Positions 21,627-57,718 are shown, counted from the stretch's first letter. The stretch: 64,000 nt of DNA from an uncultured bacterium (GCA_903934015.1 CAIZMI010000034.1:20378-84377); one strand, 5' to 3'. Numbers and translations: made by a program. Notes: a model not told the origin generated them from the sequence alone.

Positions 21627-21734
21627 ACATTTCATATAAAACAATGAATCTCCCCCGAGCACCACACCCGGAGCATTAGAAAAAAATCAAACAAACAACT
21701 AATTTATTTTGTTATTTCGATTCCACGCTGAAAC

Positions 21735-30234: not shown

Positions 30235-30244
30235 TTCCAATGTT

Positions 30245-30937
30245 GTGCTAGACCACCCCGTAACCATTGGTGTCATGCAAAGAACATATCCTTTACACGC
30301 AAAAACACTGGAGGCGCTTCATCAGATTCCGAGCAATACGATTATTGTTGATTCAACACCGGGAAGACCGATTGTCAAGAAGAACGAAAAAATAAAGGTT
30401 ATACACACGCCGGACAAAAATGGTTTTTTTGCGATAGCTCTCCTTGTCCCATTATTTACAGAATTTCTCAATACGAAAAGCGAAAAACTATTTCTGATCG
30501 AAGGCGATCTTGTTCTATCGATGGAAAATATGATCCGCGCCGAACAATGCACGGTAAACACAAAAGTATTTTACGCCGAATCCGATCCAAAAAGTCGGCA
30601 CGCATACATTCGGAGAGAAGGGTTGGCTGGTGTCTTATTGCGCAATGAGTGCGAAAAAATACTTCACTGGATGATCTCTAAACCACCTTCAATATTTAGA
30701 AAATACCAGGGATATTGCGACACTTTTCTTTGGTATGCTGTTTCCAGCGAAACGACAGGATATTCAGCATCAACAAGCGGTCCAGACTGGATACCTGTTG
30801 TACACATGACACATGACGACTACACGCGGGTTACGAAAGTTCAGCGAAGAGATATGAAAGTATACCGCGCACGCATGGCAGAGATAATTCGTTTAGCCAT
30901 AGAATGCAATCAATTTACCTATCCAAAAAGTAACTAA
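30245..30937 (+). CDS. hypothetical protein
   Basis: 230-aa ORF directly downstream of the isomerase gene. Confidence 0.4.
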   Translation: MLDHPVTIGVMQRTYPLHAKTLEALHQIPSNTIIVDSTPGRPIVKKNEKIKVIHTPDKNGFFAIALLVPLFTEFLNTKSEKLFLIEGDLVLSMENMIRAEQCTVNTKVFYAESDPKSRHAYIRREGLAGVLLRNECEKILHWMISKPPSIFRKYQGYCDTFLWYAVSSETTGYSASTSGPDWIPVVHMTHDDYTRVTKVQRRDMKVYRARMAEIIRLAIECNQFTYPKSN

Positions 30938-30949
30938 AAGTATTTCCTG

Positions 30950-31007
30950 CCACCCGCACGAAAAACCGTTTGCCTTTTTGGATCACTTGGCCGCTTCCGA
31001 CTTTTTT
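30950..31007 (+). repeat. degenerate duplicate of the tyrS 3' end (copy 1 of 4)
   Basis: In the tyrS reading frame the reverse complement encodes …VGSGQVIQKGKRFFVRV. The TyrS C-terminus is …VKTGNKIQKGKRFFVRVG. Confidence 0.65.
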
Positions 31008-31324
31008 GATTAATGAGTTTAACAACTTATACCACAACAATACTCACTGTTTCACCACTTCAATGAAATAATTAAAAAGCTCTATTACTCTCAGGAAAAG
31101 AGCTGTCGTTTCCCGCTTATTGCTTGCGTGATGAGGAAGCATAGTAAGAAAGTGACAACTCTCCAACAACAAGGAATTAATAAAGACACGATCAGTAACG
31201 CTAGTCGGAAACACTTCTAAGGGGTTTTCCCAAAAATTAAACTTCGTATCAATATTAAATATGAAATTTTTTTGAATATTTTCTCCAGACATATCAAATT
31301 TGTCCGCGTGAATCAAACACCCCG

Positions 31325-31870
31325 CGGCAAGCCGCGGGGTATGACAGGAGGCATGGCCGTCATGTGAGGAGACGTAACTGCGCTGGGTTACCGCTCGTCT
31401 TTCCCTGGTTTTGGACGTATTGCTCAACCACCTTCCAATTACCCCGCTCGCCCACTGTGGCGAGATAAAAACCGTCACTCCAAAACTCTCCACCCCACAG
31501 ATCCTTCTTGAGCGCGGGAAATCGACGGAACAACTGTATTGCCGTGACGCTTTTGAAAATTCGGACCGCTTGTGAACCACTCATCTTTGGTGGAAAAGAG
31601 CAGAGCAGATGGATGTGATCACCGTCTGTACCTATTTTTTCAAACGTAATTTCGAAGCGTTCCGTGATTTCCCGCGCGATCTGCACAATGGCGAGCGGGA
31701 TTTCGTCAGTCAGTAAAGCTTTTCTGTATTTAACAGGAAAGACGAGGTGATAGTGAGAGGTATAGACATGATGATAACCATGAAGGACGGCCATGCGTTA
31801 ATTCTATACTGGAAACCAATGGTTTCCAGACCTTCCTTTACAAGGACCCCGCGGCAAGCCGCGGGGTAAG
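31325..31870 (-). mobile_element. IS200/IS605-family element bounded by identical subterminal hairpins
   Basis: ccccgcggcaagccgcgggg occurs at 31330-31349 and 31847-31866, flanking tnpA. Confidence 0.8.
31360..31794 (-). CDS. tnpA: IS200/IS605 family transposase TnpA (Y1 HUH)
   Basis: HUH motif GDHIHLL plus YHLVFPVKYRKALL and WGGEFWSDGFYLATVG. Confidence 0.85.
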   Translation of the reverse strand: MAVLHGYHHVYTSHYHLVFPVKYRKALLTDEIPLAIVQIAREITERFEITFEKIGTDGDHIHLLCSFPPKMSGSQAVRIFKSVTAIQLFRRFPALKKDLWGGEFWSDGFYLATVGERGNWKVVEQYVQNQGKTSGNPAQLRLLT

Positions 31871-32685
31871 ATAAAAATATAATCATATAATCCGTGAAAC
31901 GAATGAAGTAGCTTCCCAAGATCGTATTCAATCGGCATCCTGGTTGCGCCATTTGGATCCACAAACTTCACGGAATCACCATTAATCAATATGTTTCCGA
32001 AATGTAAATCACCATGGATAAATCCGACACTTTGCGGTACAAATTTTTCTAAATATCTTTCTTGAGAAATTTTTTCCATTATCAGCGGTACGCCCAAATA
32101 TTCACAGCCATTAATAACAACATTCTTTAGGGCTAGTAATTCTCTTAACCATAAGATGCATTTTGCCTCATTCATTCTAAGACTTATCTTTCGCCAATAT
32201 AATCGTTCAATTTCGACTGCACCCAGAGTGAAAATATTTTTCGAATTATACAGTTCAAACAATATTTCCACGCTCTTTGCCACGTATTTTTTCAAATCAT
32301 CAAAACCAATATTATTATCACAAAAGACGCTTCCGAGAGAACGAAACTGTTCCAAAAATTCCAGCTCATAAATCGCCAAATACTGATCATAAAAGCCACC
32401 ATGAAAACATGGGGCAACATTATTATTAGCACCCAAAGACCGGTACCATTCGATTTCTTTAGAGGTTGTATCCGGCAGATATCCACTCTCCGCTTTCATA
32501 ACCCTCAACCCAAAGCGACTTTTGAAAACAACCAAAAGCGCCTTTGTATTATCTTCTTCGATAAATTTTACGACTCTTTCGCCAAGTATCCTATTAAAAC
32601 TCAGTTTAAGTTCGTCTTTGGTTAAGTGTGTTTTGGTTGATTTCAGCGATTCAATGGCCTCACAGTAAACATCAGACGTAGCCAT
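31804..32685 (-). CDS. aminoglycoside-phosphotransferase-like / choline-kinase-like protein kinase-fold enzyme; 3' end disrupted by the IS200 element
   Basis: Brenner motif HGDLHFGNIL and a downstream VDPNG. The last ~18 codons (…GLPRGPCKGRSGNHWFPV) are translated from the IS200 terminal hairpin. Confidence 0.65.
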   Translation of the reverse strand: MATSDVYCEAIESLKSTKTHLTKDELKLSFNRILGERVVKFIEEDNTKALLVVFKSRFGLRVMKAESGYLPDTTSKEIEWYRSLGANNNVAPCFHGGFYDQYLAIYELEFLEQFRSLGSVFCDNNIGFDDLKKYVAKSVEILFELYNSKNIFTLGAVEIERLYWRKISLRMNEAKCILWLRELLALKNVVINGCEYLGVPLIMEKISQERYLEKFVPQSVGFIHGDLHFGNILINGDSVKFVDPNGATRMPIEYDLGKLLHSFHGLYDYIFILPRGLPRGPCKGRSGNHWFPV

Positions 32686-33217
32686 AAAATTTGGCCGTAT
32701 GCCAAGCAATAAGCAGTGTCGGGTCCACAATGGCACCCCTCTTTAGTAAATCATCCAATTTTTCTTTTCTGACGATCCTTTCCTGTACCCTTTCCACGGA
32801 AGATGTTTGCCTCCCACTGACTTTTTCCATCTCATTCGAGAAAAAAATATGCAACATTCCATCAGATCTTCCCGGACGCATATAATAACTAACCAGTTTC
32901 TTAATTTTTTTGGGCTTATACCCCGTTTCTTCTATACATTCCCTGATTGCGGTTGCTTTGGGGCTTTCACCGGCATTTACCTTTCCTCCAGGAAGGTCAT
33001 AAATCCAAGAATCAATAGGAAATCTGTATTGATACGTCAAAAGCACGTCTCCCTCTTTCGGAACCAATAAAACCGCAGCTGCATCTTTTGAGCGATTTAC
33101 GGCATATTTTATTGTCTCCCCGTCGGGTAATTTCACAGTTTCCTCATAAAGGGGAAAGGGTTCGCCGTATATTGGCTGACTATGCACAATTTTCCATTTC
33201 TTGTTGATTGACTTCAT
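32672..33217 (-). CDS. Nudix hydrolase (ADP-ribose-pyrophosphatase-like)
   Basis: Nudix box GGKVNAGESPKATAIRECIEETG. Confidence 0.8.
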   Translation of the reverse strand: MKSINKKWKIVHSQPIYGEPFPLYEETVKLPDGETIKYAVNRSKDAAAVLLVPKEGDVLLTYQYRFPIDSWIYDLPGGKVNAGESPKATAIRECIEETGYKPKKIKKLVSYYMRPGRSDGMLHIFFSNEMEKVSGRQTSSVERVQERIVRKEKLDDLLKRGAIVDPTLLIAWHTAKFYGYV

Positions 33218-33311
33218 TTCAATGCTTGTTAATATACAATAATATTAAAGTTCGCTATCCGTAAACTATAGAACATTACACCAACTCCTTACAAGCATTA
33301 CTCAAAAGACC

Positions 33312-34421
33312 ATGCAAGAAAGTCTATCATTCAACTATAAGAAGAATTTCAATAAAGAGATTAAAATATACTTTTCGCAAGATAGTGCGAAAATTGTTGC
33401 TGACATATGTGGGTATTTAGGTACTGACCGAATTTTTATTGTTGCCGACAACGGCTTTAAAAACAACCACTCACACCGCCTTAAACAAAATCTATCAATT
33501 AAATTCCCCACTAAAGTACTAAATATAACCGCAAAAGAAATTAAGAAAAAATTATCCACCCTTCACAATTTGTCAGAAAAGATTATTGCCAATGGAGCGA
33601 CAAATAAATCAGTAATAATTTCGTTGGGCGGAGGACTGGTTGGAAATATCGCCGGCATGTTGGCGGGATTATTGTTTAGGGGCGTCCCGTTAATTCACAT
33701 ACCAACAACAGTTCTTTCGCAGGCGGATAGCGCAACGGACGTAAAACAGTCCGTCAATTGTGAAAACATAAAAAACGGGATGGGAATATATTATCCGCCT
33801 GTTGCCGTAATTATTGATGTGAATTTATTAAAAACACTCCCTGAACGCGAAGTCAGATCGGGTTTGGCGGAAATAATCAAGCATGCCCTGGCACAAGATG
33901 AAGATCTTCTTAGGTATTTATACAGAAAAGTCCCCACTCAAAAAATAAATGCGCCCACGCTTGAACGAATAATTGCCAGAACAATATCGCTCAAAATCGA
34001 ACACTGGAAAAACACGCCGGATATGTGGAGCGAGGAAGCAGTCAAAAAACCGGAAAGATTAACTCATCTTGGACACACGACGGGGAAAATTTTAGAGATT
34101 CTTCAACAAGATAAAATAACTCACGGCGAGGCAATCAGCCACGGAATGATAATCGAAGCCATCGCATCAAAAAAACTTGGAATTGGAAACGAGCAAATAA
34201 TTACCGAGATGAAAAAAGTATTTGGACGCTTTCAATTGCTTTATCCCCTCAAGAAAAACATTAATAGCTCTTCAGTTATTTATGGTCTTTATGGAAATAA
34301 AAACAAACAAAAAAATCCGATATTTGCTTTATTAAAAAATTTGGGTGTTCCAAAAACCGTTTCAACTTCAATAAATCCAGATATATTAAAAGAAGCACTG
34401 CTTGAATATGGAATCAAATAA
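33312..34421 (+). CDS. 3-dehydroquinate-synthase-like sugar phosphate cyclase (DHQS/DOIS/EEVS/DDGS superfamily)
   Basis: Glycine-rich NAD-binding motif SLGGGLVGNIAGMLAG; 369 aa; metal-binding His/Glu pattern in the C-terminal half. Confidence 0.7.
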   Translation: MQESLSFNYKKNFNKEIKIYFSQDSAKIVADICGYLGTDRIFIVADNGFKNNHSHRLKQNLSIKFPTKVLNITAKEIKKKLSTLHNLSEKIIANGATNKSVIISLGGGLVGNIAGMLAGLLFRGVPLIHIPTTVLSQADSATDVKQSVNCENIKNGMGIYYPPVAVIIDVNLLKTLPEREVRSGLAEIIKHALAQDEDLLRYLYRKVPTQKINAPTLERIIARTISLKIEHWKNTPDMWSEEAVKKPERLTHLGHTTGKILEILQQDKITHGEAISHGMIIEAIASKKLGIGNEQIITEMKKVFGRFQLLYPLKKNINSSSVIYGLYGNKNKQKNPIFALLKNLGVPKTVSTSINPDILKEALLEYGIK

Positions 34422-35190
34422 GAAAATAGTCATCTTATCAATACGCCGAAAACATTTTCCCAATACCACTCATATTGTTGAAAAACTGAAACGAGCAGGC
34501 GTGAATGTAATACACCCAAAAACGATAAGAGATTTTGAAAAAGCATGCAAAGTGATCAGTTCAAACGATATTATAATCACACTTTATTTTTCGAAAAATA
34601 ATAGCTTTAGAAAACAACTGGTAGCACTAGAAAAGAAGGGGTGCATGTTAATGGATCATCCCAACAAAATGCGGCTTACGGAAAACAGAAAGAAAACTAT
34701 GGAGTTATTGTCAAAGTCAAATATCAAGATTCCAAATTTCTATTTTGGACACCCTGACTGTATTCCAAATCATTTAGGAAATAAGCTGGTAATCAAACAT
34801 CCATTTGGACTTGCTATTGGTTTTATCGATACTAAGAGAGCTAGAGAAATTAACCAAAAGAACATTTACGTCGAAGAAATCCTTTTAAATCCCAAAAAAA
34901 CCGTCCGTTGTATCACTTACGTGTTTGGTATGGTGTTCACAAGAATCAAAAAGGACAAATTTGATATTGGTTTTGCCGATATACCGGGAACAGAGCCAAA
35001 AACGAGCACTTCGAAAAAAGATAGAATACTGGCGCAAAAGGTGCACAAACTTACCGGTATGGAATTATTCAACGTGGATTTAATCGACGAAGTTGTTATC
35101 GAGATAAATTGTTGTCCAAATTTTTTCTTGTACGACTCCATCGTCAAACATTTTGTTAAAAGAATTATAGAACTTTCGCAGAAACAATGA
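34402..35190 (+). CDS. ATP-grasp fold ligase
   Basis: LVIKHPFGLAIG, IYVEEIL, and LFNVDLIDEVVIEINCCPNF. The gene overlaps the cyclase stop codon. Confidence 0.6.
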   Translation: MNMESNKKIVILSIRRKHFPNTTHIVEKLKRAGVNVIHPKTIRDFEKACKVISSNDIIITLYFSKNNSFRKQLVALEKKGCMLMDHPNKMRLTENRKKTMELLSKSNIKIPNFYFGHPDCIPNHLGNKLVIKHPFGLAIGFIDTKRAREINQKNIYVEEILLNPKKTVRCITYVFGMVFTRIKKDKFDIGFADIPGTEPKTSTSKKDRILAQKVHKLTGMELFNVDLIDEVVIEINCCPNFFLYDSIVKHFVKRIIELSQKQ

Positions 35191-35993
35191 CGAACAATTA
35201 TGTAAATAACAAAAATGAAGTAAGGATGGTTTCAAAAGTAAGAAATAATTATTTCAGAAAATTTGTCGATTTTATTATCAAACAATCCTGCCTTAAAATG
35301 GATTCTGTCGTTGTTGACACCCCTTGTGGTACGGGAGAAATGACACAGTTATTGTTGAAAAAGGGGGTCGGAAAGAAATATTATCTTCTCGATATAAACC
35401 CATTTATGACAAAGGAGGCGCGAAATCGTTTACCGAAAAAATCAACCATTATTACCGGCGATGCCAACAATATTGCAAACTTTATTCCTGAAAGAGTCGA
35501 TACTATCTTTTGCTTAAACGGATTTCATATTTATCTATCCCGAAAGCGACAGTTTCTAAAGGGGTGTTACAAAATTCTAAGGCCCGGAGGAACTCTGATT
35601 TTTGACGTGTCAACAAAGGGATTAAACAATGAACAATCAAAAAGGTTTTTAGTGAAAGAAAACGCTGAAATGCGCATCCTATCCAGAAACAAATTTATTA
35701 AATATTGCGCGCTCAAATTGGCTAACCATAATACTTTGAAAAATTACCAAAACCTTCTCAGAGAAGCAGGCTTTTCAATTAAGACAGTAAAAATGTTTGA
35801 CACATGGAAAAGTGTCGATGAATTGGTGGATGAAACCACAAAAATACCTGGACGCCTACGCTCTCGACTATTGAACACCACAGATAAACAACGTGTGACA
35901 ATCTACAAGGAAGCCAACGAGGTTGCAAAGCAAGAAACCGGAATAAAACGCATCGAACACAACAGAATATTTTTTGTCGCAAAAAAACCATAG
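35187..35993 (+). CDS. class I SAM-dependent methyltransferase
   Basis: Motif I VVDTPCGTGEMTQLL. The start overlaps the ATP-grasp stop codon (ATGA). Confidence 0.8.
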   Translation: MTNNYVNNKNEVRMVSKVRNNYFRKFVDFIIKQSCLKMDSVVVDTPCGTGEMTQLLLKKGVGKKYYLLDINPFMTKEARNRLPKKSTIITGDANNIANFIPERVDTIFCLNGFHIYLSRKRQFLKGCYKILRPGGTLIFDVSTKGLNNEQSKRFLVKENAEMRILSRNKFIKYCALKLANHNTLKNYQNLLREAGFSIKTVKMFDTWKSVDELVDETTKIPGRLRSRLLNTTDKQRVTIYKEANEVAKQETGIKRIEHNRIFFVAKKP

Positions 35994-36032
35994 CACGGTG
36001 ATCAACACACTTTGTCTAAAAATTATGTCTTG

Positions 36033-36110
36033 CCCCGCCCGCGCGAAAACCTTTTACCTTTTTGGATCACTTGGTCACTTCCGACTTTTTGGTCGATTGT
36101 TTTCGCGACT
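36033..36110 (+). repeat. degenerate duplicate of the tyrS 3' end (copy 2 of 4; longest)
   Basis: The reverse complement translates to EVAKTIDQKVGSDQVIQKGKRFSRGRGKT. The TyrS C-terminus is VVKSIEQKVKTGNKIQKGKRFFVRVG. Confidence 0.65.
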
Positions 36111-36270
36111 TCCCCACTCATTTTTTATCCAATTTGCCGGCATAAAAAACCGGAATCAGGGACTCCGGCGAAACCATGCCACCATTCTCCGTGACGTTCC
36201 AGAAGATATCCACAAAGACTACAGTGACGCCCAGTAGCTTTTTCTAAATCAAAATGTTATAAATATAAAC

Positions 36271-36669
36271 ATGAATAAGAAATTAGTGATTTGTGCAAGT
36301 GCTTCATTTGAAAATGAAATTGTGGATTGGAAAAACAAGTTAGAAAACAATGGTTATGAGGTAATAAAATACCCCACGAAAATTAATGATGATCTCGTTA
36401 ATAAATACAAAAAGGAGTTTTCTGAACACTACGAAGCTATTACACGGACAGATGTTCTCCTTGCACTTAATTTAGATAAAAAAGGAATACCTGGTTATAT
36501 CGGAGCTGGTGTCTTTGCGGAAATTGCTTTTGGCATCGGTCTGAATCGAGCACTAAAAAAGAATATAGAGATCTATTATCTAAACTCATTCCCCAAAGAC
36601 GCCTTTCCCTATTCGGATGAATTAAAACTTTGGCAGGAGTTGGGCTGGATAAAACAGTTCCGCCCATAA
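36271..36669 (+). CDS. nucleoside 2-deoxyribosyltransferase-like protein; tentative
   Basis: GAGVFAEIAFGIGLNRAL resembles the NDT-family D.GT.FE.G.A motif. Confidence 0.4.
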   Translation: MNKKLVICASASFENEIVDWKNKLENNGYEVIKYPTKINDDLVNKYKKEFSEHYEAITRTDVLLALNLDKKGIPGYIGAGVFAEIAFGIGLNRALKKNIEIYYLNSFPKDAFPYSDELKLWQELGWIKQFRP

Positions 36670-36715
36670 ATAAAAACCGTACACGTTGTACGGCTGATAT
36701 TTTTTTGCGTCGATC

Positions 36716-38005
36716 TCACTGCCAATTTTCGACAAGGAATTGTTCTAGCACCCCGTAAGACCCTTCAAGTTGCGCAAAGTCTTCATCATCACCCCACCAG
36801 TGATAGTTGTTATGGTGGATATGGTATCTTTCCCAGCTAGACCCATTGTCGGGAATGTTGAGATTGAAAGCCTTCGCATTCCTGAAAACATACGAACCCG
36901 GTAATGGCACAAAGCGGAACAGGGATACCCTGTCAACCATCGGCGCAATATCTTTCAGGAGAGAAATTGTCTCATTTGTACTTTCCAGATTTTCACCGGG
37001 AAAGCCATGCACTAGAAAGATCTTGACCATCAAACCTACTGATATGGCAAGATTAACAGCTCTTCTGATTTGGTTAGTCGTCACATTCTTACCCATTGCC
37101 TGCAACATTCGTTCACTGCCGGATTCCACCCCAAATTTCAACTCAATACATCCCGCATCGTGCAAACACTCAAGCAGTTCATAATCAACCGTATCAACTC
37201 TGGAAAGCGCAGACCATTTCAGATTGAGACTTTCTACGGCTCTGCAGATTTCCCTCACCATCTTTTTGTTGATAATGAAGTTATCGTCAACTACCGCGAA
37301 GCCATCAATACCGTATCTGCGTTTGAGATGCTCGAGCTCCATTCTAACATTCTCGCCAGATCGACACTGAACCCTTTTTTGATAAACTGCGCAGAAATGA
37401 CAAGAAAATGGGCATCCTCGACTCATCATAATATGTGCCATTTTCATATCAGTATTTGCCAAACGATCATGCATAATTAAGTCCGACTCGTCGAGCAAAT
37501 GCCTCGCCGGAAAAGGAAGCCAATCTATCCCCTTTTCAAGAGAACGGCTTGCGGTCGTCTTTGGTGACTGATCGACCAAGTAGCCTACCCCTCTAATACT
37601 CGAAAAATCCCCAGTAGAATGTGCTCGTACGATTTCTACTAAGGTTTTTTCTCCGCTTCCTATCGCAACAACATCAGCCCGAAAATCCACAAGCGTTTCT
37701 TCTGGATAGAAACTGGCATGAACTCCACCAACCGCAATTGTAGTATTGGATGAATACATACCCCCAAACCTCGCCCTTTGGACAATCCCGTAAGTCGCCG
37801 AGGATGGGGTGCTAAACCCGACAACGTCATAACCCTGAAAATCACAACTATTTTCCCCCTCGTTAATCTTGAAGATTTTCACTTCAATATTATTTTCTTC
37901 AAGGAAAGCCGCGAGGTACAAAACACCAAACGGAGGAAATTCTTTTCTCTTTTCCTTAAAACGAGCAAGTTCGTAAACCTCTGGATAAACGAGAGCAACT
38001 CGCAT
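36716..38005 (-). CDS. B12-binding radical SAM enzyme (class B)
   Basis: N-terminal cobalamin-binding Rossmann-like domain. CxxxCxxC cluster motif SRGCPFSCHFCAV. Confidence 0.8.
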   Translation of the reverse strand: MRVALVYPEVYELARFKEKRKEFPPFGVLYLAAFLEENNIEVKIFKINEGENSCDFQGYDVVGFSTPSSATYGIVQRARFGGMYSSNTTIAVGGVHASFYPEETLVDFRADVVAIGSGEKTLVEIVRAHSTGDFSSIRGVGYLVDQSPKTTASRSLEKGIDWLPFPARHLLDESDLIMHDRLANTDMKMAHIMMSRGCPFSCHFCAVYQKRVQCRSGENVRMELEHLKRRYGIDGFAVVDDNFIINKKMVREICRAVESLNLKWSALSRVDTVDYELLECLHDAGCIELKFGVESGSERMLQAMGKNVTTNQIRRAVNLAISVGLMVKIFLVHGFPGENLESTNETISLLKDIAPMVDRVSLFRFVPLPGSYVFRNAKAFNLNIPDNGSSWERYHIHHNNYHWWGDDEDFAQLEGSYGVLEQFLVENWQ

Positions 38006-38174
38006 GTTAGACCCTTTCTACTTATTCAATTATTGAAAATGCAATCAGAGCCACAGAACTTGGCAACTTACAATATTATATGCGGATGATCAAGGCTTTC
38101 TACTTACAAGGTGTCAACGCTAAATGACAGAATATCAATCAGTTACCACCTCTCAGTTAATTGTTGGCACCTGA

Positions 38175-38591
38175 TCAGATTTTTTTCTTTTCGGAAAGCC
38201 ACCCAATCAACATCGTCTTTAAACTTTCCGGAAGTAATTTAACTTTATTCAACGACTTTATTTCAATAAACTCGAAACTTATGTGATTTTCCCTGCTCAC
38301 AATTTTTTCTGTACCAATTTCGACAACAAACACTAAATTTAATTCGTGATGTTTCGTTCCATTCTGTTTAAATATGTTTTCGACTACACCAACAGATTCT
38401 CCTAATTTCGCAACAGTTCCTAATTCTTCTCTAATTTCCCTTGCAAGCGCTTTTTGGGCCGACTCCCCAAATTCTATATGACCACCCGGTAAAAAACACC
38501 AGTCGGCCTCTTTGGCCTTGCACACTAACAATTTATCCCCCGAAACAATCACCGCGCGTACAATATTCTCGATAAAAAGATGGCTATCCAT
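38175..38591 (-). CDS. Nudix hydrolase
   Basis: Nudix box GGHIEFGESAQKALAREIREELG. Confidence 0.8.
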   Translation of the reverse strand: MDSHLFIENIVRAVIVSGDKLLVCKAKEADWCFLPGGHIEFGESAQKALAREIREELGTVAKLGESVGVVENIFKQNGTKHHELNLVFVVEIGTEKIVSRENHISFEFIEIKSLNKVKLLPESLKTMLIGWLSEKKKI

Positions 38592-38702
38592 ATTTTATAC
38601 CCTAGCAGATATTAACATTCTTTTCACTCGAGGATTTTTACAAACTTGAGATATCACCCTCAAACTTGTAATGTACTAATACAAGCATTTTCATTAGATT
38701 AA

Positions 38703-39263
38703 ATGGCCACGAAATATACAAAAGACGAAAATGAAATAATTGAAAAAGCAATTCTTTTTCTTGTTACCGAATATGAAAAAACTGGATCCAATGAAAAACC
38801 GGTAATATTTCATAGTCTGCGCGTCGCTTGCAAGCTTGTGGAAGTTGGCGCATCAGCCACTATTGTTACCGCCGCCATTCTGCATGATTTAATTGAAGAC
38901 ACCAATGTTGATTTTGAGCGAATAAAAAATATTTTTGGCAGTGATGTCGCAAAGCTCGTCGACGCCGTTTCTTTTAAACCAAATATCGTTGACAAAGAAG
39001 AACGATATAAAGAAATGTTCGAAAGAACAAAAAATGCCGGAACAGATGCACTTAAAATCAAATGTGCAGATATTTTAGATAACAGTAGCTATTACTCATT
39101 CGGCCTTGACCAAGAACACGAAAAACGCTTGATAAACAAGCTAAAATATTTTTTGTTTATTGCAGAACCACAATTAGACGATTTTCCCCTCTTTCAATTA
39201 CTGAATGAACGTTATCAAACATTACTCACCCAATTTAATAACGACAATAAAAAGCCAATATAA
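38703..39263 (+). CDS. HD-domain (p)ppGpp-hydrolase-like small alarmone hydrolase (RelA/SpoT HD domain only)
   Basis: FHSLRVACKLVE…AAILHDLIEDT matches the Rel/Spo hydrolase HD motif. Confidence 0.65.
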   Translation: MATKYTKDENEIIEKAILFLVTEYEKTGSNEKPVIFHSLRVACKLVEVGASATIVTAAILHDLIEDTNVDFERIKNIFGSDVAKLVDAVSFKPNIVDKEERYKEMFERTKNAGTDALKIKCADILDNSSYYSFGLDQEHEKRLINKLKYFLFIAEPQLDDFPLFQLLNERYQTLLTQFNNDNKKPI

Positions 39264-39299
39264 TGTTCACACGACTTATTTTTTTAACCACACATTAAT

Positions 39300-39622
39300 A
39301 TGAAATTTAAAGATTTAATCTCTAAAGCACTAGTGATCAGAGCTACGTATGGCGAGTATGAAGAAAAAACCTATGGCAAAAGGTGGACTAAAGAAAATAC
39401 CGCCGAGGACTTTGTTGGAGACGTGGGTGATTTAATGAATTTGGTGCTGGTCAAACAAGGAGTACGGCAAATAGAGGAGATTGATAAATAATCGCGCACG
39501 AATTATCTGATTGTTTATGGTCAATTATAGTTTTGGCTCAGTTCTATAATTTTGATTTGGAGTCCGCTTTTTTAACAAACATAGATGAATTAAAGTCTTT
39601 TATCGAAAATAAGATTAAATAA
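39300..39622 (+). pseudogene. MazG-like NTP pyrophosphohydrolase with a single-A frameshift
   Basis: N-terminal part ends …VGDLMNLVLVKQGVRQIEEIDK at the stop at 39489-39491. The C-terminal part continues in the -1 frame (IAHELSDCLWSIIVLAQFYNFDLESAF…). One extra A in the gataaataatc run would fuse the two parts. Confidence 0.55.
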
Positions 39623-39637
39623 AAATAATTTTGTCAG

Positions 39638-40027
39638 TCACACAGAATGAGATTTCCGTAGCCCAATTGCGAGACTGCTGATACAAAGCGCGTGATCAAA
39701 CTTTCCACTGACAATCATTTTCCACAACTTGTCCTCATCAATGAAACTGCAATTTATTACTTCCGCAGGATCTTCTTTTGGTTGAGAAATCTTAACCGGG
39801 TTTTTGACGAGAAAAACAAACATCTTATTGCTCTGTCTGGCTGGATTTGGTGACACCGTACCAACAAAAGAAAAATCTCCCGTATAACCAGTCTCCTCTA
39901 ATAATTCCCTTTTCGCGGCTTCAAGCGGATTTTTGTCTTTTTCATCCACGGCACCGCATGGCAATTCATAGCTCACTTTGCCAATTCCGTGACGATACAT
40001 AATAAGGAGAGACTTTTGTTCCGTCAC
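39638..40027 (-). CDS. Nudix hydrolase
   Basis: Nudix box GAVDEKDKNPLEAAKRELLEETG. Confidence 0.8.
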   Translation of the reverse strand: MTEQKSLLIMYRHGIGKVSYELPCGAVDEKDKNPLEAAKRELLEETGYTGDFSFVGTVSPNPARQSNKMFVFLVKNPVKISQPKEDPAEVINCSFIDEDKLWKMIVSGKFDHALCISSLAIGLRKSHSV

Positions 40028-40374
40028 TGGTCACACAATCATCCGCACGCACCTTAATCCATCGATCAGATAATACATAACGAGACCGCAGCACTTTCCA
40101 AGGCTTAATAATCTTTTTAAAATTTTTGACTAATTTCATGAACTTTCCAGGTTAGTTATTATCATTCCCTTTATGAATCATCCACTGATTTAACCCTAAC
40201 CACTTTCTTATTTTATTTCAATAACCTCGCCCTATCGGTGGTAGATACGAGCATACAGATTGAATATTTTCATTCGATGTTATCACAAAACTTAACTTAT
40301 TAAGTATAAAATTATTTGTGATACTTTTAAAAGTGACTATTTACCAAAAACGGTAATGAACCTAAAGTATCAAT

Positions 40375-40995
40375 ATGCAAAGTCATAACCCTAATCCCGA
40401 CGATAAATTAATTTGGACGGAAATATCAAGAAAACAATTATTCGAGAAATTTTCTCGTGGCATTGATGATGTTGTCTTCAAATTTCCTGATAATCAAATA
40501 CACCATTATTTTATTAAAAATGAGCCGGACACGGTCTGCACACTGGCTTTTGATCAAAATAATCAGGTTATTTTGGCACAACAATTTCGACCCGGTCCAC
40601 AAAAGGTTCTTCTCACGCTCCCTGGAGGAGGCCTAGAGCCTGGTCATGATCCCATTTCAAGTGCCACAAGAGAACTAATGGAAGAGGTTGGTTACGAAAG
40701 CCATCTCAATCTCACTGCAACCTTTTTTGATGACGGGTACTCTACAAGCAGACGCTATTGTTTTTTAGCTGTAAATTGTACGAAAACAAATATCCAAAAA
40801 CTAGATCCGACAGAATTTATCAACACTGTTCAACTGCCCATTGATATCTTTATGGATGAACTCCGAAACGGAAGTATTACTGATCCGGAAGCAGCCTATG
40901 CTGCAATAGATTTTATTAATAAAAATGCGGATTCTCGGAAAGAATACAGCGACTTAAGTGAGTTGTTCAAAAAAACAATATATACGGCTTATTAA
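40375..40995 (+). CDS. Nudix hydrolase
   Basis: Nudix box PGGGLEPGHDPISSATRELMEEVG. Confidence 0.8.
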   Translation: MQSHNPNPDDKLIWTEISRKQLFEKFSRGIDDVVFKFPDNQIHHYFIKNEPDTVCTLAFDQNNQVILAQQFRPGPQKVLLTLPGGGLEPGHDPISSATRELMEEVGYESHLNLTATFFDDGYSTSRRYCFLAVNCTKTNIQKLDPTEFINTVQLPIDIFMDELRNGSITDPEAAYAAIDFINKNADSRKEYSDLSELFKKTIYTAY

Positions 40996-41383
40996 AAAAC
41001 CCTCCATGTTGAGAGGGCTTGTAATAATACAATTATCAGTTTTGAATCAATGGGGTGACACAAAAAGAAAAACAAAAAAGCGTGGTAAGCCTCATCAAGG
41101 GGTTGATAATAGAAGAAATTTTCCTTAAACAAGAGTAGTTTGTCTACCGTTATATCTAGTCCAATTTCCTCTTTGACCTCGCGCTTTAAAGCGTCCTCCA
41201 TTTTTTCTCCGACTTCCATCCCGCCCCGGGAAACCAAAGTTTACCATTACTTTTGTTTCGCATCGTTACAACCTTACCTTGCTCCAAAATAATACCGTAA
41301 ACGCTGGGTCGGAAATAAAACTTCTCGAGAGGAACATCCACCATTTCGTCAAAATTATTTTTGCAAGAAATAAATTTGTCCAT
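40992..41383 (-). pseudogene. Nudix hydrolase split by a frameshift in a G-run inside the Nudix box
   Basis: N-terminal fragment ends …KLWFPGAGWKSEKKWRTL. The C-terminal fragment begins VSRGGMEVGEKMEDALKREVKEEIG. One extra G in ggggcggg restores PGGGMEVGEK…. Confidence 0.55.
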
Positions 41384-41436
41384 TAGTCAACTATTTACAG
41401 AATGGTACCAAACGTGCGTTATTGCAACTGACACCA

Positions 41437-41739
41437 TTAGTTTCCCAAATGTCTCTGCAATAAAAATTTTGTCGTTAACTTTAATTTTCTATCAATGCGT
41501 AAATCATCCACGATTACTGCCAAATTTTGCCAATCTTCTTCTGTGAAATAACGCCACAACAGACGGTTGATGAAACGACTGTAATATTGACGTTCTTCCG
41601 CCGTGTTCCGCCATGGCTGTTTGCACAACATTCCGTCTCAGTTGGTCAGTGCCTCAATATCCGAGGGCGAATAATTCATCATAAATATAGTTTATCATTA
41701 ACGCCCGTGATATTGTTAATCTTGGCTATGCACAATTAA
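41437..41739 (-). pseudogene. paralog of the 80-aa small protein at 43719-43961, with TGG to TGA nonsense change
   Basis: Reads MMNYSPSDIEALTN-stop-DGMLCKQPWRNTAEERQYYSRFINRLLWRY…, about 90% identical to the intact copy. The stop codon sits where the paralog has Trp. Confidence 0.5.
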
Positions 41740-41819
41740 TATTTGCATGAATTTGACAACATAGGTCTCGTCCGTAACAGCCAAATTCGCGTTAATTTTA
41801 CTGTTTTGAATTATGCTTT

Positions 41820-41853
41820 TACAAAAAACCGCTTGCCTTTTGGGATTATTTGG
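41820..41853 (+). repeat. degenerate duplicate of the tyrS 3' end (copy 3 of 4)
   Basis: The reverse complement encodes GQIIPKGKRFFVKA followed by a stop. Confidence 0.5.
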
Positions 41854-41886
41854 CCAAATTTTTACACAAAAAAAGATCGGCTATCA

Positions 41887-42444
41887 CTAACCGATCTCAC
41901 AACCTCTTGATCTAAGAAAACGCATTAACGCCTCACTCGCATGAAAAAAGGTCCCGTTATTGGCGATCTCGATGTCCGCCAGTGAAACAACTTCGGCCAT
42001 TCCCGCTTCCGTCTTAAATCGGTCAATGAGACGCATTTCTGCAATCGCCACATCCAATGAACAACTCAAGCGTCGTTGCATATTAGATTGCCGACGATCA
42101 ACTGAAGCATGAATCAAAACAGTTAGGCAATTTGCACCAGGAAATGCTTCCACTATCCCCTGTTTCAACCAGGGATCGTAGCAACCATCAATCACAACAC
42201 TTACGCCTTTCTCCAGCATTTGCTGAAGAATAACGAGTGTTTTTTTGCGTGCACATTGCACTAAATGATTAGTACCGGCTTTTTTCCACCAGTCTCTAAC
42301 ATGCTTTTCCCCAGCAAACACCGCCAGTTCGTGCAACAACGCTCGTTCCTTGATTATCTGCCAACGAGGATCGGCTTCAACCAGCGCCTTCGCGATAGTT
42401 GATTTTCCCGTCCCGCTCGGTCCAGTGAGCAAAAGAATGAACAT
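41887..42444 (-). CDS. P-loop NTPase / small-molecule kinase-like protein
   Basis: Walker A LLLTGPSGTGKSTIA at the N-terminus. GC-richer than neighbours. Confidence 0.55.
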   Translation of the reverse strand: MFILLLTGPSGTGKSTIAKALVEADPRWQIIKERALLHELAVFAGEKHVRDWWKKAGTNHLVQCARKKTLVILQQMLEKGVSVVIDGCYDPWLKQGIVEAFPGANCLTVLIHASVDRRQSNMQRRLSCSLDVAIAEMRLIDRFKTEAGMAEVVSLADIEIANNGTFFHASEALMRFLRSRGCEIG

Positions 42445-42889
42445 TTCTCTTTTCCCTCCAAAAATCCGCGACTATTTGTTTTGTGCCGACAATGGTTTTT
42501 AATTTTTTCAGCTCCTTATTACTTACCCACTTGTAGACTTTGTGTTCATCGCTAAGTTGCAAAATTCCATCGCAACCAACCAAAAAAACAATACGCACAA
42601 TCAAGTAGCTGATGCCGTTTGTTTTAGTCAAAATCTGCGTTACTGTCAATGGCTCACTTTTAACGACCACCAACCCCGTCTCCTCTTTGACCTCCCTCTC
42701 CATTGCCTCTCGCGCCACCTCCCGCACCTCCAATTTGCCTTCGGGAAGTTGCCACAAACCCCTGAAAGATTTGTGATTTATACTGCGTTTCAACATCAAA
42801 ATACGACTGTTTTTATCGACAATAATCGCTGAAGCAACTAATTTAATTTGCGTTAAATCAGGTATGTTCATTTTGTAATTTTTGCGCAT
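42377..42889 (-). CDS. Nudix hydrolase
   Basis: Nudix box EGKLEVREVAREAMEREVKEETG. The C-terminal 68 nt overlap the downstream kinase ORF, so the true 3' end is uncertain. Confidence 0.65.
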   Translation of the reverse strand: MRKNYKMNIPDLTQIKLVASAIIVDKNSRILMLKRSINHKSFRGLWQLPEGKLEVREVAREAMEREVKEETGLVVVKSEPLTVTQILTKTNGISYLIVRIVFLVGCDGILQLSDEHKVYKWVSNKELKKLKTIVGTKQIVADFWREKRNVHSFAHWTERDGKINYREGAG

Positions 42890-43697
42890 AAGTTCGCATA
42901 CGTGCGACAACCTCTCTCACCTTTAACCAATTTTCATCCAAGTTTTTTTCTGCCAAATCCAAATGCAAAAATAATTGGCGAAATGATTCTTTGTAAGGTG
43001 CCCCTTCTAACAAAGGAAATGAACTGTAACCAACCTCGCGGTCTTCTTCAACCTCGCGAATATCATCGATCAGTTGCATGGCAACGCCATACCCATTAGC
43101 AAAACCCAAGGCTTTTTCTCTGACATCTTCACGCTCGGCCAAAGCGCACCCAAATAAAGCACCAATGGAATTAAACACACAAATATGTTCTATCCCCGGG
43201 CGATAATCACTAAAGTTTGTCGCTTTGTTTTCCCAAAGCAATGAAATATTCTTCCGCTGATAATAATGGTTCAAATTAATCTGCTGTAACAATATATCCA
43301 ACGCCTTCTTCTTATCCATTTCAATCAACATCCTTGTGCCTTCAATCGCCATAATATTCCCCGCAAAAACCAGGCACGACACTAAATCCCTTTCTTTGGG
43401 CATTTCGTCAACAATGTCATCGTGTGTCGAAATCGGTAGCATTGTCATCCCCAGCGCGATCAATGCCTTATCATCAACAGATTTTCCGGTTAAATCAAAA
43501 TGAAAAGCTTCACAAATGACCATCGGCGCCAAAGCGATTACTTTTTTCGGAAGAACAATAAACAATTTTTCTAAACCGGCATCAGGATATGATTTTACAA
43601 CTTCCGCAACTACCGGAATTAGCAACTCACGATAGCGCGTAACGTCGCCGTACAAATCTCCAACCAAACTTGATGTACCACCAACTTTTGATGACAT
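42858..43697 (-). CDS. polyprenyl synthetase family protein (short-chain trans-isoprenyl diphosphate synthase-like)
   Basis: Two Asp-rich motifs, HDDIVDE and QLIDDIREVEED. Confidence 0.7.
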   Translation of the reverse strand: MSSKVGGTSSLVGDLYGDVTRYRELLIPVVAEVVKSYPDAGLEKLFIVLPKKVIALAPMVICEAFHFDLTGKSVDDKALIALGMTMLPISTHDDIVDEMPKERDLVSCLVFAGNIMAIEGTRMLIEMDKKKALDILLQQINLNHYYQRKNISLLWENKATNFSDYRPGIEHICVFNSIGALFGCALAEREDVREKALGFANGYGVAMQLIDDIREVEEDREVGYSSFPLLEGAPYKESFRQLFLHLDLAEKNLDENWLKVREVVARMRTYAQKLQNEHT

Positions 43698-43718
43698 ATA
43701 ATTCCTTAATTATAACCC

Positions 43719-43961
43719 TTATTTCAAATGTCTTCGCAATAAAAATTTTGTGGTGAGTTTTAGTTTTCTGTCTATGCGCAAATCATCAACGATTTTTGCC
43801 AAATTTTGCCAATCTTCTTCTGTCAAATAACGCCACAACAGACGGTTGATGAAGCGACTGTAATATTGACGTTCTTCCGCTGTATTCCGCCATGGCTGTT
43901 TGCACAACATTCCGTCCCAGTTGGTTAACGCCTCAAGATCCGAAGATGAATAGTTCATCAT
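43719..43961 (-). CDS. small conserved hypothetical protein (80 aa) translationally coupled to the upstream NTase gene
   Basis: ATGA overlap with the 43958-44629 gene. A pseudogenised paralog lies at 41437-41739. Confidence 0.5.
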   Translation of the reverse strand: MMNYSSSDLEALTNWDGMLCKQPWRNTAEERQYYSRFINRLLWRYLTEEDWQNLAKIVDDLRIDRKLKLTTKFLLRRHLK

Positions 43962-44629
43962 AAGGTCGTACTGTTAATTAATTTATCTATTTGTGCTGTA
44001 ACTAATTCAATATTTGTTATGCCGTCACGTAAAAACATCTCCGGCCTTAATTGAAACTGCTCCCTTTTCGCAACAAGCTCGCTTAATAATTTTTCTTCAC
44101 CAATCGTTCCCAAACGAAATTTCTTTTCTGCGATTTCAGCAAGATTACGAAGAGACCAATTTTGTTTTTTTGTAAGAAAGGCAATATCGATATAATCCTT
44201 AATTTCATCTCGCGAACAAAGCGCCGACGCTTTGCCGGCGGCCGCATCTTCCAAACTCGCCGTTGCCAATGTTCCAAACACTACAAAGCTCCCAATTTGG
44301 GAAATATTATCGTGTACCGCGTCAATCACCATTCCACTGGCCTTATCCATCCAACCGCGATCAGTATCGACAATTTGATCAACACCAAAAAGCTCTTGCG
44401 CCAAACGGTGCAACCGGATCATCCGTTGGTTAAATACAAGCGCATCAACTTCCGGATAAGTAAAAAAATCAAGATCATTTGATTGTCGCGGAACAATACC
44501 CAACGCTTTTAATAATGTGCCACCGGTCAAATAAAAAGTACGCGCCAGTTCAACATCGTCAGCCACGTTTTTAATCACCTCCAATTGCGGTTCAGTTAAA
44601 TCTTGCAACTCATCAATTGTTCTAATCAT
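43958..44629 (-). CDS. nucleotidyltransferase of the AbiEii/DUF1814-like toxin family
   Basis: YLTGGTLLKALGIVPRQSNDLDFF resembles the AbiEii GGTAL…R.S.D.DF motif. Confidence 0.55.
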   Translation of the reverse strand: MIRTIDELQDLTEPQLEVIKNVADDVELARTFYLTGGTLLKALGIVPRQSNDLDFFTYPEVDALVFNQRMIRLHRLAQELFGVDQIVDTDRGWMDKASGMVIDAVHDNISQIGSFVVFGTLATASLEDAAAGKASALCSRDEIKDYIDIAFLTKKQNWSLRNLAEIAEKKFRLGTIGEEKLLSELVAKREQFQLRPEMFLRDGITNIELVTAQIDKLINSTTL

Positions 44630-44692
44630 ATTTTAAGTTTAACCTATCGCCATACGTAAGTACAGAATAAACGCGCCTGCAAAAAAAGATAC

Positions 44693-45889
44693 TTATCCCA
44701 CCCGCACGAAAAATCGTTTGCCCTTTTGGATTTTATTACCTGTTTTAACTTTTTGTTCAATTGATTTTACAACTTCTTCGTCGATTTTAACCGCGCCCTG
44801 TTCAACCAATTGACGCGCTTTTGTTTTGCTCGTGGCGATTTTACTTTCTACTAACGCATCGACAATCGTCATGCCGGCAACTTTAGCTGTTGGCATTTCA
44901 TCTGGCGTTGTTTTCTTCTGAAAAACATTCACAAAGTAGTCTTGCGCTTCTTTAGCCGCCGCTTCCCCTGCATACATTTTTACCAACTCGGAAGCCAGGG
45001 CCATCTTGATATCGCGTGGATTCGTTTTACCGGCTTTTAATTCCTTGGCATATGTTTCCACCTGTTCCATCGGTAAACGTGTGCAATGCTCAAAATACGT
45101 GACAATTAGGCCATCTGGAACACTCATCACCTTCCCAAACATGTCGTTCGGCGCATCAGTGAGATTGATCGTGTTGCCCCAACTGGAGCTCATCTTGCGA
45201 CCGTCCGTACCCAATACCAAATTTGTCATCACGATGTCTTGCGATTCTTGTCCGTAGTGTTTTTGAATTTCTCTACCGGCCAACAAATTGAAACGTTGAT
45301 CCGTACCACCTAGTTCGACATCGGATTTCACCGCCACGCTGTCATAACCTTGCATCAAGGGATATAAAAGTTCGCGCAACGAAACACGACTTCCCTCTTT
45401 CAGGCGTTTGCTGATATTTTCACGCGCAATAAATTCGGCCAAGGAAAAATAATTAGCAAGCCGACCAATTTCCGCAAAACCCAATTTCTTAAGCCAAGAG
45501 GAATTATATTGCACTTCCGCTTTTTCAAGATCCAAAATTTTCCCGGCCTGTTCAACGTAGGTTTTCATGTTCTTGGCGATTTCTTGCTCCTCCAACATTT
45601 TCCGTTCGCTTTCCTTGTCGGAAGTATCACCAATTACGCCCGTAAAATCACCGACAATGAAAACTACTTGGTGTCCAAGCTTTTGGAAATCGCGCAATTT
45701 GAGCAGTGTTACTGAACGACCAATGTGAAGATTAGGGCTAGTCGGATCAATCCCCAATTTAACCCGCAGTTGTTTTCCCGATAACAACTGTTCTTCCAGA
45801 TGTTTTTTATCGATAACCTCATTAACACCGCGTGTTAACAATTCACTAATGGCTTCTTTGTCGGTACTTAATTCCATAACATTCAGCAT
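44693..45889 (-). CDS. tyrS: tyrosyl-tRNA synthetase
   Basis: HIGH motif (PTSPNLHIGRSV) and KMSKS motif (KMSSSWGN). C-terminal S4 domain ending KGKRFFVRVG. Confidence 0.9.
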   Translation of the reverse strand: MLNVMELSTDKEAISELLTRGVNEVIDKKHLEEQLLSGKQLRVKLGIDPTSPNLHIGRSVTLLKLRDFQKLGHQVVFIVGDFTGVIGDTSDKESERKMLEEQEIAKNMKTYVEQAGKILDLEKAEVQYNSSWLKKLGFAEIGRLANYFSLAEFIARENISKRLKEGSRVSLRELLYPLMQGYDSVAVKSDVELGGTDQRFNLLAGREIQKHYGQESQDIVMTNLVLGTDGRKMSSSWGNTINLTDAPNDMFGKVMSVPDGLIVTYFEHCTRLPMEQVETYAKELKAGKTNPRDIKMALASELVKMYAGEAAAKEAQDYFVNVFQKKTTPDEMPTAKVAGMTIVDALVESKIATSKTKARQLVEQGAVKIDEEVVKSIEQKVKTGNKIQKGKRFFVRVG

Positions 45890-45919: not shown

Positions 45920-46249
45920 TTATAAAGGATTCCTTCCTGCTTGCAACAGAACCCTTTGTTCCTCAATTATTTTTCGGAAAGATTCATCAACTCGATTCAA
46001 ATCAACCAAATCGACTTTAATTGGTAAATTCGATTCGGAAAAAACATCTGCCATTAATCCCAATACTTTCGAATCAATCGGTTTCTCACAGTCAATAGCC
46101 AAATCAAGATCAGAAGCTGGTTTTGCCTTTCCACTTATTCGTGAACCAAAAACCCAAACAGCGCAACTTGAAACATGAGTGCGTAAAATGTTATTCACAA
46201 TCTCCAATTGTTCCGAACTTAAATCAATTTTTTTAGTTGCTTCGTTCAA
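45920..46249 (-). CDS. minimal nucleotidyltransferase (MNT/HI0073-like)
   Basis: NTase signature VFGSRISGKAKPASDLDLAID. Confidence 0.7.
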   Translation of the reverse strand: MNEATKKIDLSSEQLEIVNNILRTHVSSCAVWVFGSRISGKAKPASDLDLAIDCEKPIDSKVLGLMADVFSESNLPIKVDLVDLNRVDESFRKIIEEQRVLLQAGRNPL

Positions 46250-46628
46250 GGTTTTCCAGTAAATATTTCGCTTCCGTTAAAAATGGTTCCGCAAAAGAAT
46301 AAACGTGCGTCGCCACCTTCACATCATATGTATGTGATGTTTGATTTCGCGCTTTTCGATATTCAAACCATTGTTCGACATTTTTAACATATCCCCGTTC
46401 AAACGCAGTTCGTAAAATGTCGTTATATATCATTTGATCAACATTGTCGTTGTGCTTCATTTCCAAAACCCTTTTAATAAATTTTACCGCCAGTTCATGG
46501 GAATATTCAAAACGCTGAATCACGCCATCGCGGGATAATTCGTTTTCCGGTTCTTTTTTCGCGCGCAAAAGCCCTTCTTCAAGCTGTTTCAGAGCATTTT
46601 TAAGTGGAGTGAGATCCAGTACGTTCAT
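46233..46628 (-). CDS. HEPN-domain protein (HI0074-like NTase substrate-binding family)
   Basis: Rx4HxY HEPN motif RNQTSHTYD near the C-terminal third. Start taken at the internal Met. Confidence 0.6.
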   Translation of the reverse strand: MNVLDLTPLKNALKQLEEGLLRAKKEPENELSRDGVIQRFEYSHELAVKFIKRVLEMKHNDNVDQMIYNDILRTAFERGYVKNVEQWFEYRKARNQTSHTYDVKVATHVYSFAEPFLTEAKYLLENLERSN

Positions 46629-46686
46629 AAAGTCAGTGTACAACCAATTGCGCCAATGTTCCAAATTCCATATCCTGAAGAGTACT

Positions 46687-57674: not shown

Positions 57675-57718
57675 ATAGAAACATTATAACAAAAACCCTA
57701 CAAAAATACCAACTACTT

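Follow-up and report, generated by a model that had tools for sequence, protein, structure and literature searches.

Why does the last segment of tyrS recur, in degenerate form and on the same strand, in the DNA that follows the gene? The question is raised by a 64,000-nucleotide (nt) stretch of DNA from an uncultured bacterium (GCA_903934015.1, CAIZMI010000034.1:20378-84377), referred to here as the window, in which an earlier note had described tyrS-end copies and attributed them to serial island integration. Judged by the relatives of its TyrS protein, the host appears to belong to the Patescibacteria (candidate phyla radiation [CPR]), near Paceibacteria and Moranbacteria, with a genome that is probably ~1 Mb in size. 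We conclude that the copies derive from tyrS, that they are specific to the window's lineage, and that they are very probably scars left by repeated insertion at the end of tyrS. How the insertions were catalyzed is less clear-cut, and two routes are weighed below.

The tyrS 3' end recurs at four downstream sites

To avoid circularity, we kept the copies out of the search model: the nucleotide profile was compiled from the authentic tyrS 3' ends of nine genomes (the window and eight relatives) and included none of the copies. The segment of tyrS that recurs downstream is its final ~105 nt (44694-44797), and the protein ends in ...VVKSIEQKVKTGNKIQKGKRFFVRVG. The gene and its copies, all of which share the tyrS strand, are as follows.

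44693-45889, minus strand: intact tyrS, 398 amino acids (aa) by translation; Pfam tRNA-synt_1b, SYY_C-terminal and S4; nhmmer E 1.2e-24
41815-41861, minus strand: copy c3, 47 nt, profile positions 52-98 of 105; nhmmer E 5e-8; reads GQIIPKGKRFFVKA and then a stop codon
36034-36116, minus strand: copy c2, 83 nt, profile positions 18-101; nhmmer E 1.4e-12
30949-31029, minus strand: copy c1, 81 nt, profile positions 22-101; nhmmer E 1.2e-12
28944-28995, minus strand: copy c0, the most decayed, 52 nt, profile positions 47-98; nhmmer E 5e-6; tblastn E 0.023

A tblastn search of the window with the last 59 TyrS residues agreed with the profile at the three sites already described, matching 31028-30951 (E 7e-6), 36124-36047 (E 2e-5) and 41936-41817 (E 2e-4). 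The peptides quoted earlier for these copies and for the real TyrS C-terminus were likewise matched by tblastn and translation. The inventory itself was incomplete, since c0 had been missed; with it, the array of copies spans 28.9 to 44.7 kb. Two extensions were rejected. Extending c0 to 29105-29176 relied on a weak tblastn similarity that neither a longer profile nor Pfam S4 supported, and extending c3 to 41936 overlapped the 3' end of a kinase gene and its terminator, the profile supporting 41815-41861 only.

At the DNA level, the copies and the tyrS ends are 63 to 77% alike over 50 to 85 nt. A 26-nt core, ATCCAAAAAGGCAAACGGTTTTTCGT, occurs three times in the window at ≤3 mismatches (0 expected; 100 shuffles). 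The core holds an A5...T5 partial dyad, and ATCCAAAAAGGCAAACGGTTTTT is a candidate crossover segment. Copies c1 and c2 start ~85 nt before the stop position, and c3 and c0 start ~53 to 58 nt before it. There are thus two discrete copy lengths, and a distinctive left half, GTCGGAAGYGRCCAAGTGATCCAAAAAGG, is common to c1 and c2; both features fit defined att homology blocks. Within c1, 34 nt match the resident tyrS end at 94% identity, and an IS200 element directly adjoins this copy on its tyrS-proximal side. Copies c1 and c2 are each other's closest match (77%), and c2 is 73.5% identical to the real ends of two relatives (L096 and L218; the L numbers denote loci compared with the window) versus 66% to the resident end. 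More generally, c3, c2 and c0 are 64 to 66% identical to the resident end (64% for c3) versus 73 to 77% to the real ends of relatives, indicating that the copies are not recent local duplicates.

A different reading would make the copies a functional or chance intergenic motif, such as a terminator or regulatory element, that happens to resemble the end of tyrS. The partial dyad in the core is compatible with such a motif, as are the strong terminator-like hairpins that a terminator scan placed on the minus strand at 29063-29086, 36149-36169 and 41873-41898. These hairpins lie 12 to 70 nt tyrS-proximal of c0, c2 and c3 but outside the copies themselves, suggesting that each block of DNA closes with a terminator just before a scar; directly upstream of the hairpin before c2, there is no gene on the minus strand for it to terminate. 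The profile, in contrast, reaches E values down to 1e-12 over 80 nt of coding sequence, the tyrS reading frame is retained in the copies (c2 has a 1-nt deletion near its end), no Rfam family matched at any copy, and c3 runs directly into a flank orthologous to the DNA behind tyrS in relatives (see below). The motif reading is therefore effectively refuted, and we regard it as extremely improbable.

The copies are confined to one lineage

Among 216 loci (2.1 Mb) searched with the tyrS-end profile, 101 gave a match, and the only ones with more than one were contigs from the population of the window itself. By tblastn, run separately, tyrS was placed in some 100 to 150 of the loci, and 80 loci from GTDB, searched in the same way, likewise held no extra copies. 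The copies are specific to the window's lineage. A generic intergenic repeat unrelated to tyrS, named beforehand as an outcome that would overturn the earlier proposal, is ruled out. Same-population contigs overlapping the array (L001 to L005) were identical to the window save for ≤1 mismatch and showed no deletion variant, and the sequences compared included no strain with just some of the blocks.

Relative to its relatives, the window holds ~15.8 kb of extra DNA behind tyrS

Closer relatives were taken from a protein search (TyrS identity 71 to 91%), and their contigs were compared with the window. GTDB representative genomes were discarded as a source of an empty site, being too distant (best TyrS identity 66%, no synteny). 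Upstream of tyrS, gene order is kept in the collinear relatives L090, L092, L094, L095 and L096 (TyrS 80 to 91%): HSP20, a methyltransferase, two EPSP-synthase-family genes, an epimerase, PfkB, an NTP-transferase, polyprenyl synthase and tyrS. Between the polyprenyl synthase gene and the start of tyrS, the window has a pair of genes for an NTase and an NTase-substrate-binding protein (MNT/HEPN-like; 45920-46733). This pair is also found in L095, and at least its substrate-binding gene in L218, and is absent in L090, L092, L094 and L096, so the 5' side of tyrS is variable too. Past the tyrS stop codon, the DNA is different in every relative examined.

L090: a MazG-like gene, then LytB
L092: a methyltransferase, then LytB
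L096 (TyrS 91%): directly the 279-aa gene found at 42858-43697 in the window, 87% nt identity
L095 (TyrS 86%): a 220-nt spacer, an AbiEii-like gene plus a small gene, then AdoMet decarboxylase
L217 (TyrS 85%): a spacer as in L095, a DUF4143 ATPase, an AbiEii-like gene plus the small gene, then Nudix
L218 (TyrS 83%): a DUF4143 ATPase on the opposite strand
L183 (TyrS 84%): a Nudix-like gene and an amino-acid kinase
28451-28873 of the window, minus strand: AdoMet decarboxylase (Pfam), the first backbone gene past the array

In L095, the AdoMet decarboxylase gene lies 1.26 kb past the tyrS stop codon. Positions 4067-4513 of L095 match window 28898-28452 at 82%, and collinearity runs on from 28898 through AdoMet decarboxylase, a gene with an LPG-synthase C-terminal domain, a histidine kinase and VanW; from a reading of both spacers, it may begin near 28935. 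L183 rejoins the window backbone at 28109. Because L095 and L183 return to the backbone only 1.2 to 1.7 kb past tyrS, the window holds ~15.8 kb extra (44692 to ~28900). Both relatives provide an empty site: the proximal boundary of the insertion is the tyrS end, and the distal boundary falls within ~10 to 45 nt of c0, which marks that junction. The synteny comparison that the earlier note had called for thus bears out an addition between tyrS and the backbone. We conclude that the 3' end of tyrS serves as a hotspot for insertion within this clade.

Copy c3 is a displaced former gene end

Past the stop of c3, ~130 nt align with the spacer behind the real tyrS of L095 and L217. Beyond this spacer lies a copy of the small gene (41446-41684) and then a frameshifted Nudix gene, the AbiEii-like gene having been almost wholly deleted behind c3. 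In L217, the small gene and the DNA downstream of it are collinear with window 41684-41108 (79.8% over 578 nt). Together, c3 and the ~700 nt behind it are orthologous to the DNA after the real tyrS in two relatives, indicating that c3 is a displaced former gene end. The 2.8 kb now between c3 and tyrS would have pushed it away. The P-loop kinase of this 2.8 kb, used as a probe for the c3 region of the closest relative, returned only the self match and one 59% match on a 1.5-kb contig.

The small gene is present twice in the window (43725-43963 and 41446-41684), the two copies aligning without gaps at 89% identity, with a TGG-to-TGA change at codon 15 of the second. A duplicated small gene with one pseudogenized copy had been noted previously; both copies, however, sit at the tyrS-proximal end of their intervals and not at the distal end, as had been stated. 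This pair, each member of which comes soon after a tyrS end, and the many Nudix paralogues of the region might suggest local segmental duplication, in which the tyrS end and the DNA downstream were copied in situ several times through unequal crossing-over or slippage during replication, after which the units diverged, lost genes and became shuffled. The blocks, however, are not collinear paralogues: only the 239-nt small gene is common to them, their flanks are unrelated, and the Nudix genes come from different subfamilies (~27% identity). In addition, c3, c2 and c0 are closer to the tyrS ends of relatives than to the resident end, and c3 and the resident end are 64% identical versus 89% for the small-gene pair, although equal divergence times would be expected. 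Current data lean toward the genes of each block grouping with different relatives and not among themselves. Segmental duplication is accordingly an improbable source of the array.

The small protein was also considered, and set aside, as a marker of the inserted elements, given that it is a fixed partner of the AbiEii-like protein in contexts unlinked to tyrS. Behind the gene for the AbiEii-like 223-aa NTase there is always one, overlapping it by 4 nt, for a protein of 80 to 86 aa (window 43719-44629; L086, L088, L089, L095 and L217). This partner matched no Pfam or NCBIfam family and has 11 homologues among 5.8 billion proteins, the pair occurring in varied contexts. Judged from these gene neighborhoods, the small protein marks a toxin-antitoxin-like module and not an island family. 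In canonical AbiEi/AbiEii systems, AbiEi is larger and encoded upstream; the pair in the window differs in both size and gene order.

Probable serial insertion at the tyrS end

The tyrS-derived, lineage-specific copies, the 15.8-kb insertion with c0 at its junction and the orthology of c3 together make serial insertion the right frame for this locus. On four occasions, an incoming block carrying its own last ~50 to 85 nt of tyrS would have recombined inside the resident terminal segment. The incoming end would have completed tyrS, leaving this essential gene intact, and the old end, with everything behind it, would have been pushed downstream. Four blocks (~2.0, 5.0, 5.7 and 2.8 kb) would in this way have been stacked between tyrS and its original neighbor, the AdoMet decarboxylase gene, with c0, farthest from tyrS, as the oldest scar. 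As catalyst we favor a site-specific recombinase, since lost from the blocks or supplied in trans, which would make the array a stack of decayed islands without an integrase, of the cis-mobilizable-element (CIME) type, in a gene-shedding lineage. The order of events, a crossover within the conserved core and the nature of the recombinase are what we infer from the arrangement of the copies. The earlier proposal of serial island integration therefore stands with respect to serial insertion at the tyrS 3' end, which synteny and the orthology of c3 bear out; the identification of the copies as attR sites of site-specific islands is unproven, since no integrase, attP match or arm sequence common to the copies was found in the searches described below.

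The contents of the blocks, by Pfam and, for block 2, also NCBIfam, are as follows.

41862-44692, minus strand: block 4, nearest tyrS, ~2.8 kb
43958-44629: AbiEii-like NTase
43719-43961: 80-aa partner of the AbiEii-like NTase
42858-43697: 279-aa polyprenyl-synthase-like gene
42377-42910: Nudix
41887-42444: P-loop kinase
41873-41898: terminator hairpin
36117-41814: block 3, ~5.7 kb
41685-41814: spacer S1'
41446-41684: pseudocopy of the small gene
41034-41383: frameshifted Nudix
40375-40995: Nudix
39638-40139: Nudix, maybe frameshifted
38703-39263: HD_4 hydrolase
38175-38591: Nudix
36716-38005: B12-binding radical SAM protein
36271-36669: 132-aa open reading frame (ORF)
36149-36169: hairpin
31030-36033: block 2, ~5.0 kb
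31360-31794: IS200 Y1 transposase
31804-32736: APH-type kinase
32672-33217: Nudix
33312-34421: AroB-like sugar-phosphate cyclase, first gene of an operon with the RimK-like ORF and the methyltransferase
34402-35190: weak RimK-like ORF
35187-35993: methyltransferase
28996-30948: block 1, most distal, ~2.0 kb
30245-30937: 230-aa ORF of unknown function
29455-30234: xylose-isomerase-like TIM barrel
29063-29086: terminator hairpin

The cargo described previously was broadly borne out by Pfam, except that the ATP-grasp label is backed by a weak RimK-family match only. The pseudogenes in block 3 indicate that decay is under way, and no phage structural, replication or lysis genes were found in the blocks. 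Several block genes have orthologues 5 to 8 kb downstream of tyrS in L090 and L092, among them Nudix genes of block 3, and the block 2 Nudix is 50% identical in protein sequence to one in L092. Block 1 has no counterpart at the matching position in L095 or L183. Across the 64 kb there are nine Nudix genes or pseudogenes, at least one of them frameshifted (41034-41383), which is unusually dense for a small genome; three lie outside the blocks (7023-7436, 14271-14828 and 16921-17331).

Site-specific recombinase or homologous recombination

The reading we prefer is that the insertions were integrase-mediated, as a tandem accretion of islands that have lost their integrase, and we consider the case for this evenly balanced. 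In favor of a site-specific recombinase are the two discrete copy lengths, the left half shared by c1 and c2, the established CIME model and a repeat elsewhere in the window. The last is a perfect 20-nt direct repeat, CGATTCCTTCCGAGCGCACT (6140-6159 and 6407-6426, 267 nt apart; 0 expected by chance), covering the 3' end of tRNA-Lys(ctt) (6085-6158); by its position, it is a putative att-like site, a classic site-specific footprint, and no integrase was found near it.

A number of results weigh against this view, or against foreign islands as such. Pfam scans of nearly all window ORFs of ≥110 aa found no tyrosine or serine recombinase, as the earlier note had claimed for the window, and none was found in the 10 kb past its right end, the note having proposed to look beyond 30 kb or elsewhere. 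The blocks, like the other window ORFs scanned, yielded no gene for an excisionase, a relaxase or replication; the transposases in the window are the IS200 Y1 enzyme and an IS3-type DDE (rve) enzyme. The tyrS-downstream DNA examined in nine close relatives held no integrase, and integrase families were absent from the 25 families listed (each with at least 2 ORFs) for 112 ORFs just after Patescibacteria tyrS. An attP-like copy was found neither in two viral-contig scans nor among the metagenome matches listed, where those not from tyrS were unrelated proteins sharing IQKGKRFF. The flanks of the copies showed no likeness to one another over 400 nt upstream or 300 nt downstream (z ≤2.3), the upstream flank of c1 in this comparison being taken up by IS200. 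The proximal ends of blocks 3 and 4 resemble the ordinary tyrS-downstream chromosome of relatives, and L095 has the arrangement of spacer, AbiEii-like gene and small gene without a distal scar. Finally, the tetranucleotide correlation of the blocks with the backbone (0.87 to 0.93) matches that of backbone control chunks (0.85 to 0.93). Composition breaks at the copies, which the earlier note had suggested as a check, were therefore rejected as a signature, there being none beyond the variation among control chunks. Its description of the cargo as accessory in type must be qualified in the same way, given backbone-like tetranucleotides and several genes orthologous to tyrS-downstream genes of relatives. 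This composition suggests that the donor DNA most likely came from close relatives and not from distant donors or phages.

These observations bring in a second route, integrase-free homologous recombination, in which the tyrS ends of related strains, with the genes downstream of them, would have been added through the terminal homology of tyrS. It could have proceeded by a Campbell-type single crossover of a circularized fragment or, after the first scar, by a double crossover with the tyrS body as the left arm and the donor scar paired with the recipient's real end as the right arm; the donor block would then be inserted with nothing deleted and a new scar made. Along with native-like composition and the lack of a recombinase gene anywhere examined, this route accommodates the orthology of the block 4 start to L096 and of block 3 to L217 and L095, including the post-stop spacer. 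The copies resemble the clade's real tyrS alleles over their whole length, and the repeat unit ends where tyrS homology ends. The site is also variable in every relative examined and scarred in none of them, suggesting a hotspot that is normally serviced in this manner. Set against these points, the first anchor-duplicating event would still have to be explained, and there would have been four events in one lineage versus none in ~100 other tyrS loci. Moreover, homology of 50 to 85 nt at ~65 to 77% identity is a poor RecA substrate, and the discrete copy lengths and the 20-nt tRNA-Lys repeat point to site-specific activity. We consider homologous recombination the main rival, a possible but less likely origin of the array. 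Similarly tentative is the suggestion that a block between tyrS and a tyrS-end scar is a portable cassette that can be added to related genomes without an integrase.

Other features of the window

Several further features of the window lie outside the tyrS array. Between tRNA-Lys and tRNA-Ser(gct) is a block of ~6 kb (6413-12472) with genes for a Nudix protein, a VTT-domain protein, an HD protein, a GmrSD-like/HNH nuclease and an EcoRI-type adenine methylase. In L183, the flanks of this block are only ~220 nt apart and the block is apparently absent, the nearby DNA being rearranged; the block may be a separate restriction or defense island beside a tRNA gene. A LAGLIDADG_3 ORF of 415 aa (12581-13828) lies between tRNA-Ser(gct) and tRNA-Arg(gcg) and is present in L183 at 73% nt identity. 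The IS3-family DDE (rve) transposase (18254-19386) is part of a ~5-kb segment (16689-21735) that also encodes an aldehyde dehydrogenase, an MBL-fold hydrolase and a nucleotidyltransferase; neither L095 nor L183 has this segment, whose tetranucleotide correlation with the backbone is the lowest (0.785). An imperfect palindrome of ~185 nt, with termini TTAGGCGAC...GTCGCCTAA, occurs in intergenic DNA at 16735-16917 and 57717-57900. It is also found in L092 and L183 (76 to 86% identity), has no Rfam match, and resembles a miniature inverted-repeat transposable element or a long hairpin element.

Relation to known systems and significance

Accretion of CIMEs at the 3' ends of genes is an established model, exemplified by ICESt1/ICESt3-related elements at fda in Streptococcus thermophilus (summarized in PMC5704250). 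As in CIME accretion, the direct repeats at tyrS are the 3' end of the target gene, the gene is kept intact, and tandem integrase-less blocks are each bounded by repeats, with newcomers entering at the copy in the intact gene. Unlike that model, the tyrS array has no integrase, conjugation or mobilization gene in its blocks or nearby, and no functional partner element was found for it. Its repeats are 50 to 85 nt long and 63 to 77% alike, in contrast to short, near-identical cores; its blocks resemble the native chromosome of close relatives; and the host is a CPR bacterium, with tyrS as target. With the search for a recombinase negative and neither an attP nor an excision product known, CIME membership is not established.

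Islands at tRNA genes and integrative plasmids of actinomycetes have long att identity, ~58 bp for pSAM2 and ~112 bp for SLP1. In these, as at tyrS, an attP copy of the target's 3' end restores the gene, the displaced end becomes attR, and arrays are possible. They differ in having a tyrosine integrase by the att site and a known attP, neither of which was found for the tyrS array, where the target is protein coding. Integrase-free transfer hotspots between core genes are also known, as is homology-facilitated illegitimate recombination in natural transformation. The tyrS locus shares with such hotspots a conserved gene as anchor, variable DNA behind it, close relatives as donors and an absence of mobile-element genes. 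Those processes, however, normally replace or delete recipient DNA and leave the anchor undoubled, whereas here the anchor end is duplicated four times. Our literature search found no report of tyrS as an integration target.

Patescibacteria have tiny genomes with few recognizable mobile elements, their gene gain is poorly documented, and CPR bacteria are thought to rely on DNA uptake. Against this background, the locus preserves, in order, the traces of four gains of DNA at a single site, ~16 kb in all, which brought in Nudix hydrolases, a small cyclitol-type cluster, a B12-dependent radical SAM enzyme and toxin-antitoxin-like modules. Should an integrase eventually be found, tyrS would simply join the list of known targets; should there be none, the array would be a natural example of additive, homology-armed capture. 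A genuine tyrS ending in ...KVGSGQVIQKGKRFF and followed by the genes of block 2 or block 3, if such exists, would point to a chromosomal donor. If the cassette reading is true, strain-to-strain gene flow among CPR bacteria could be read off, in order, from the scars.

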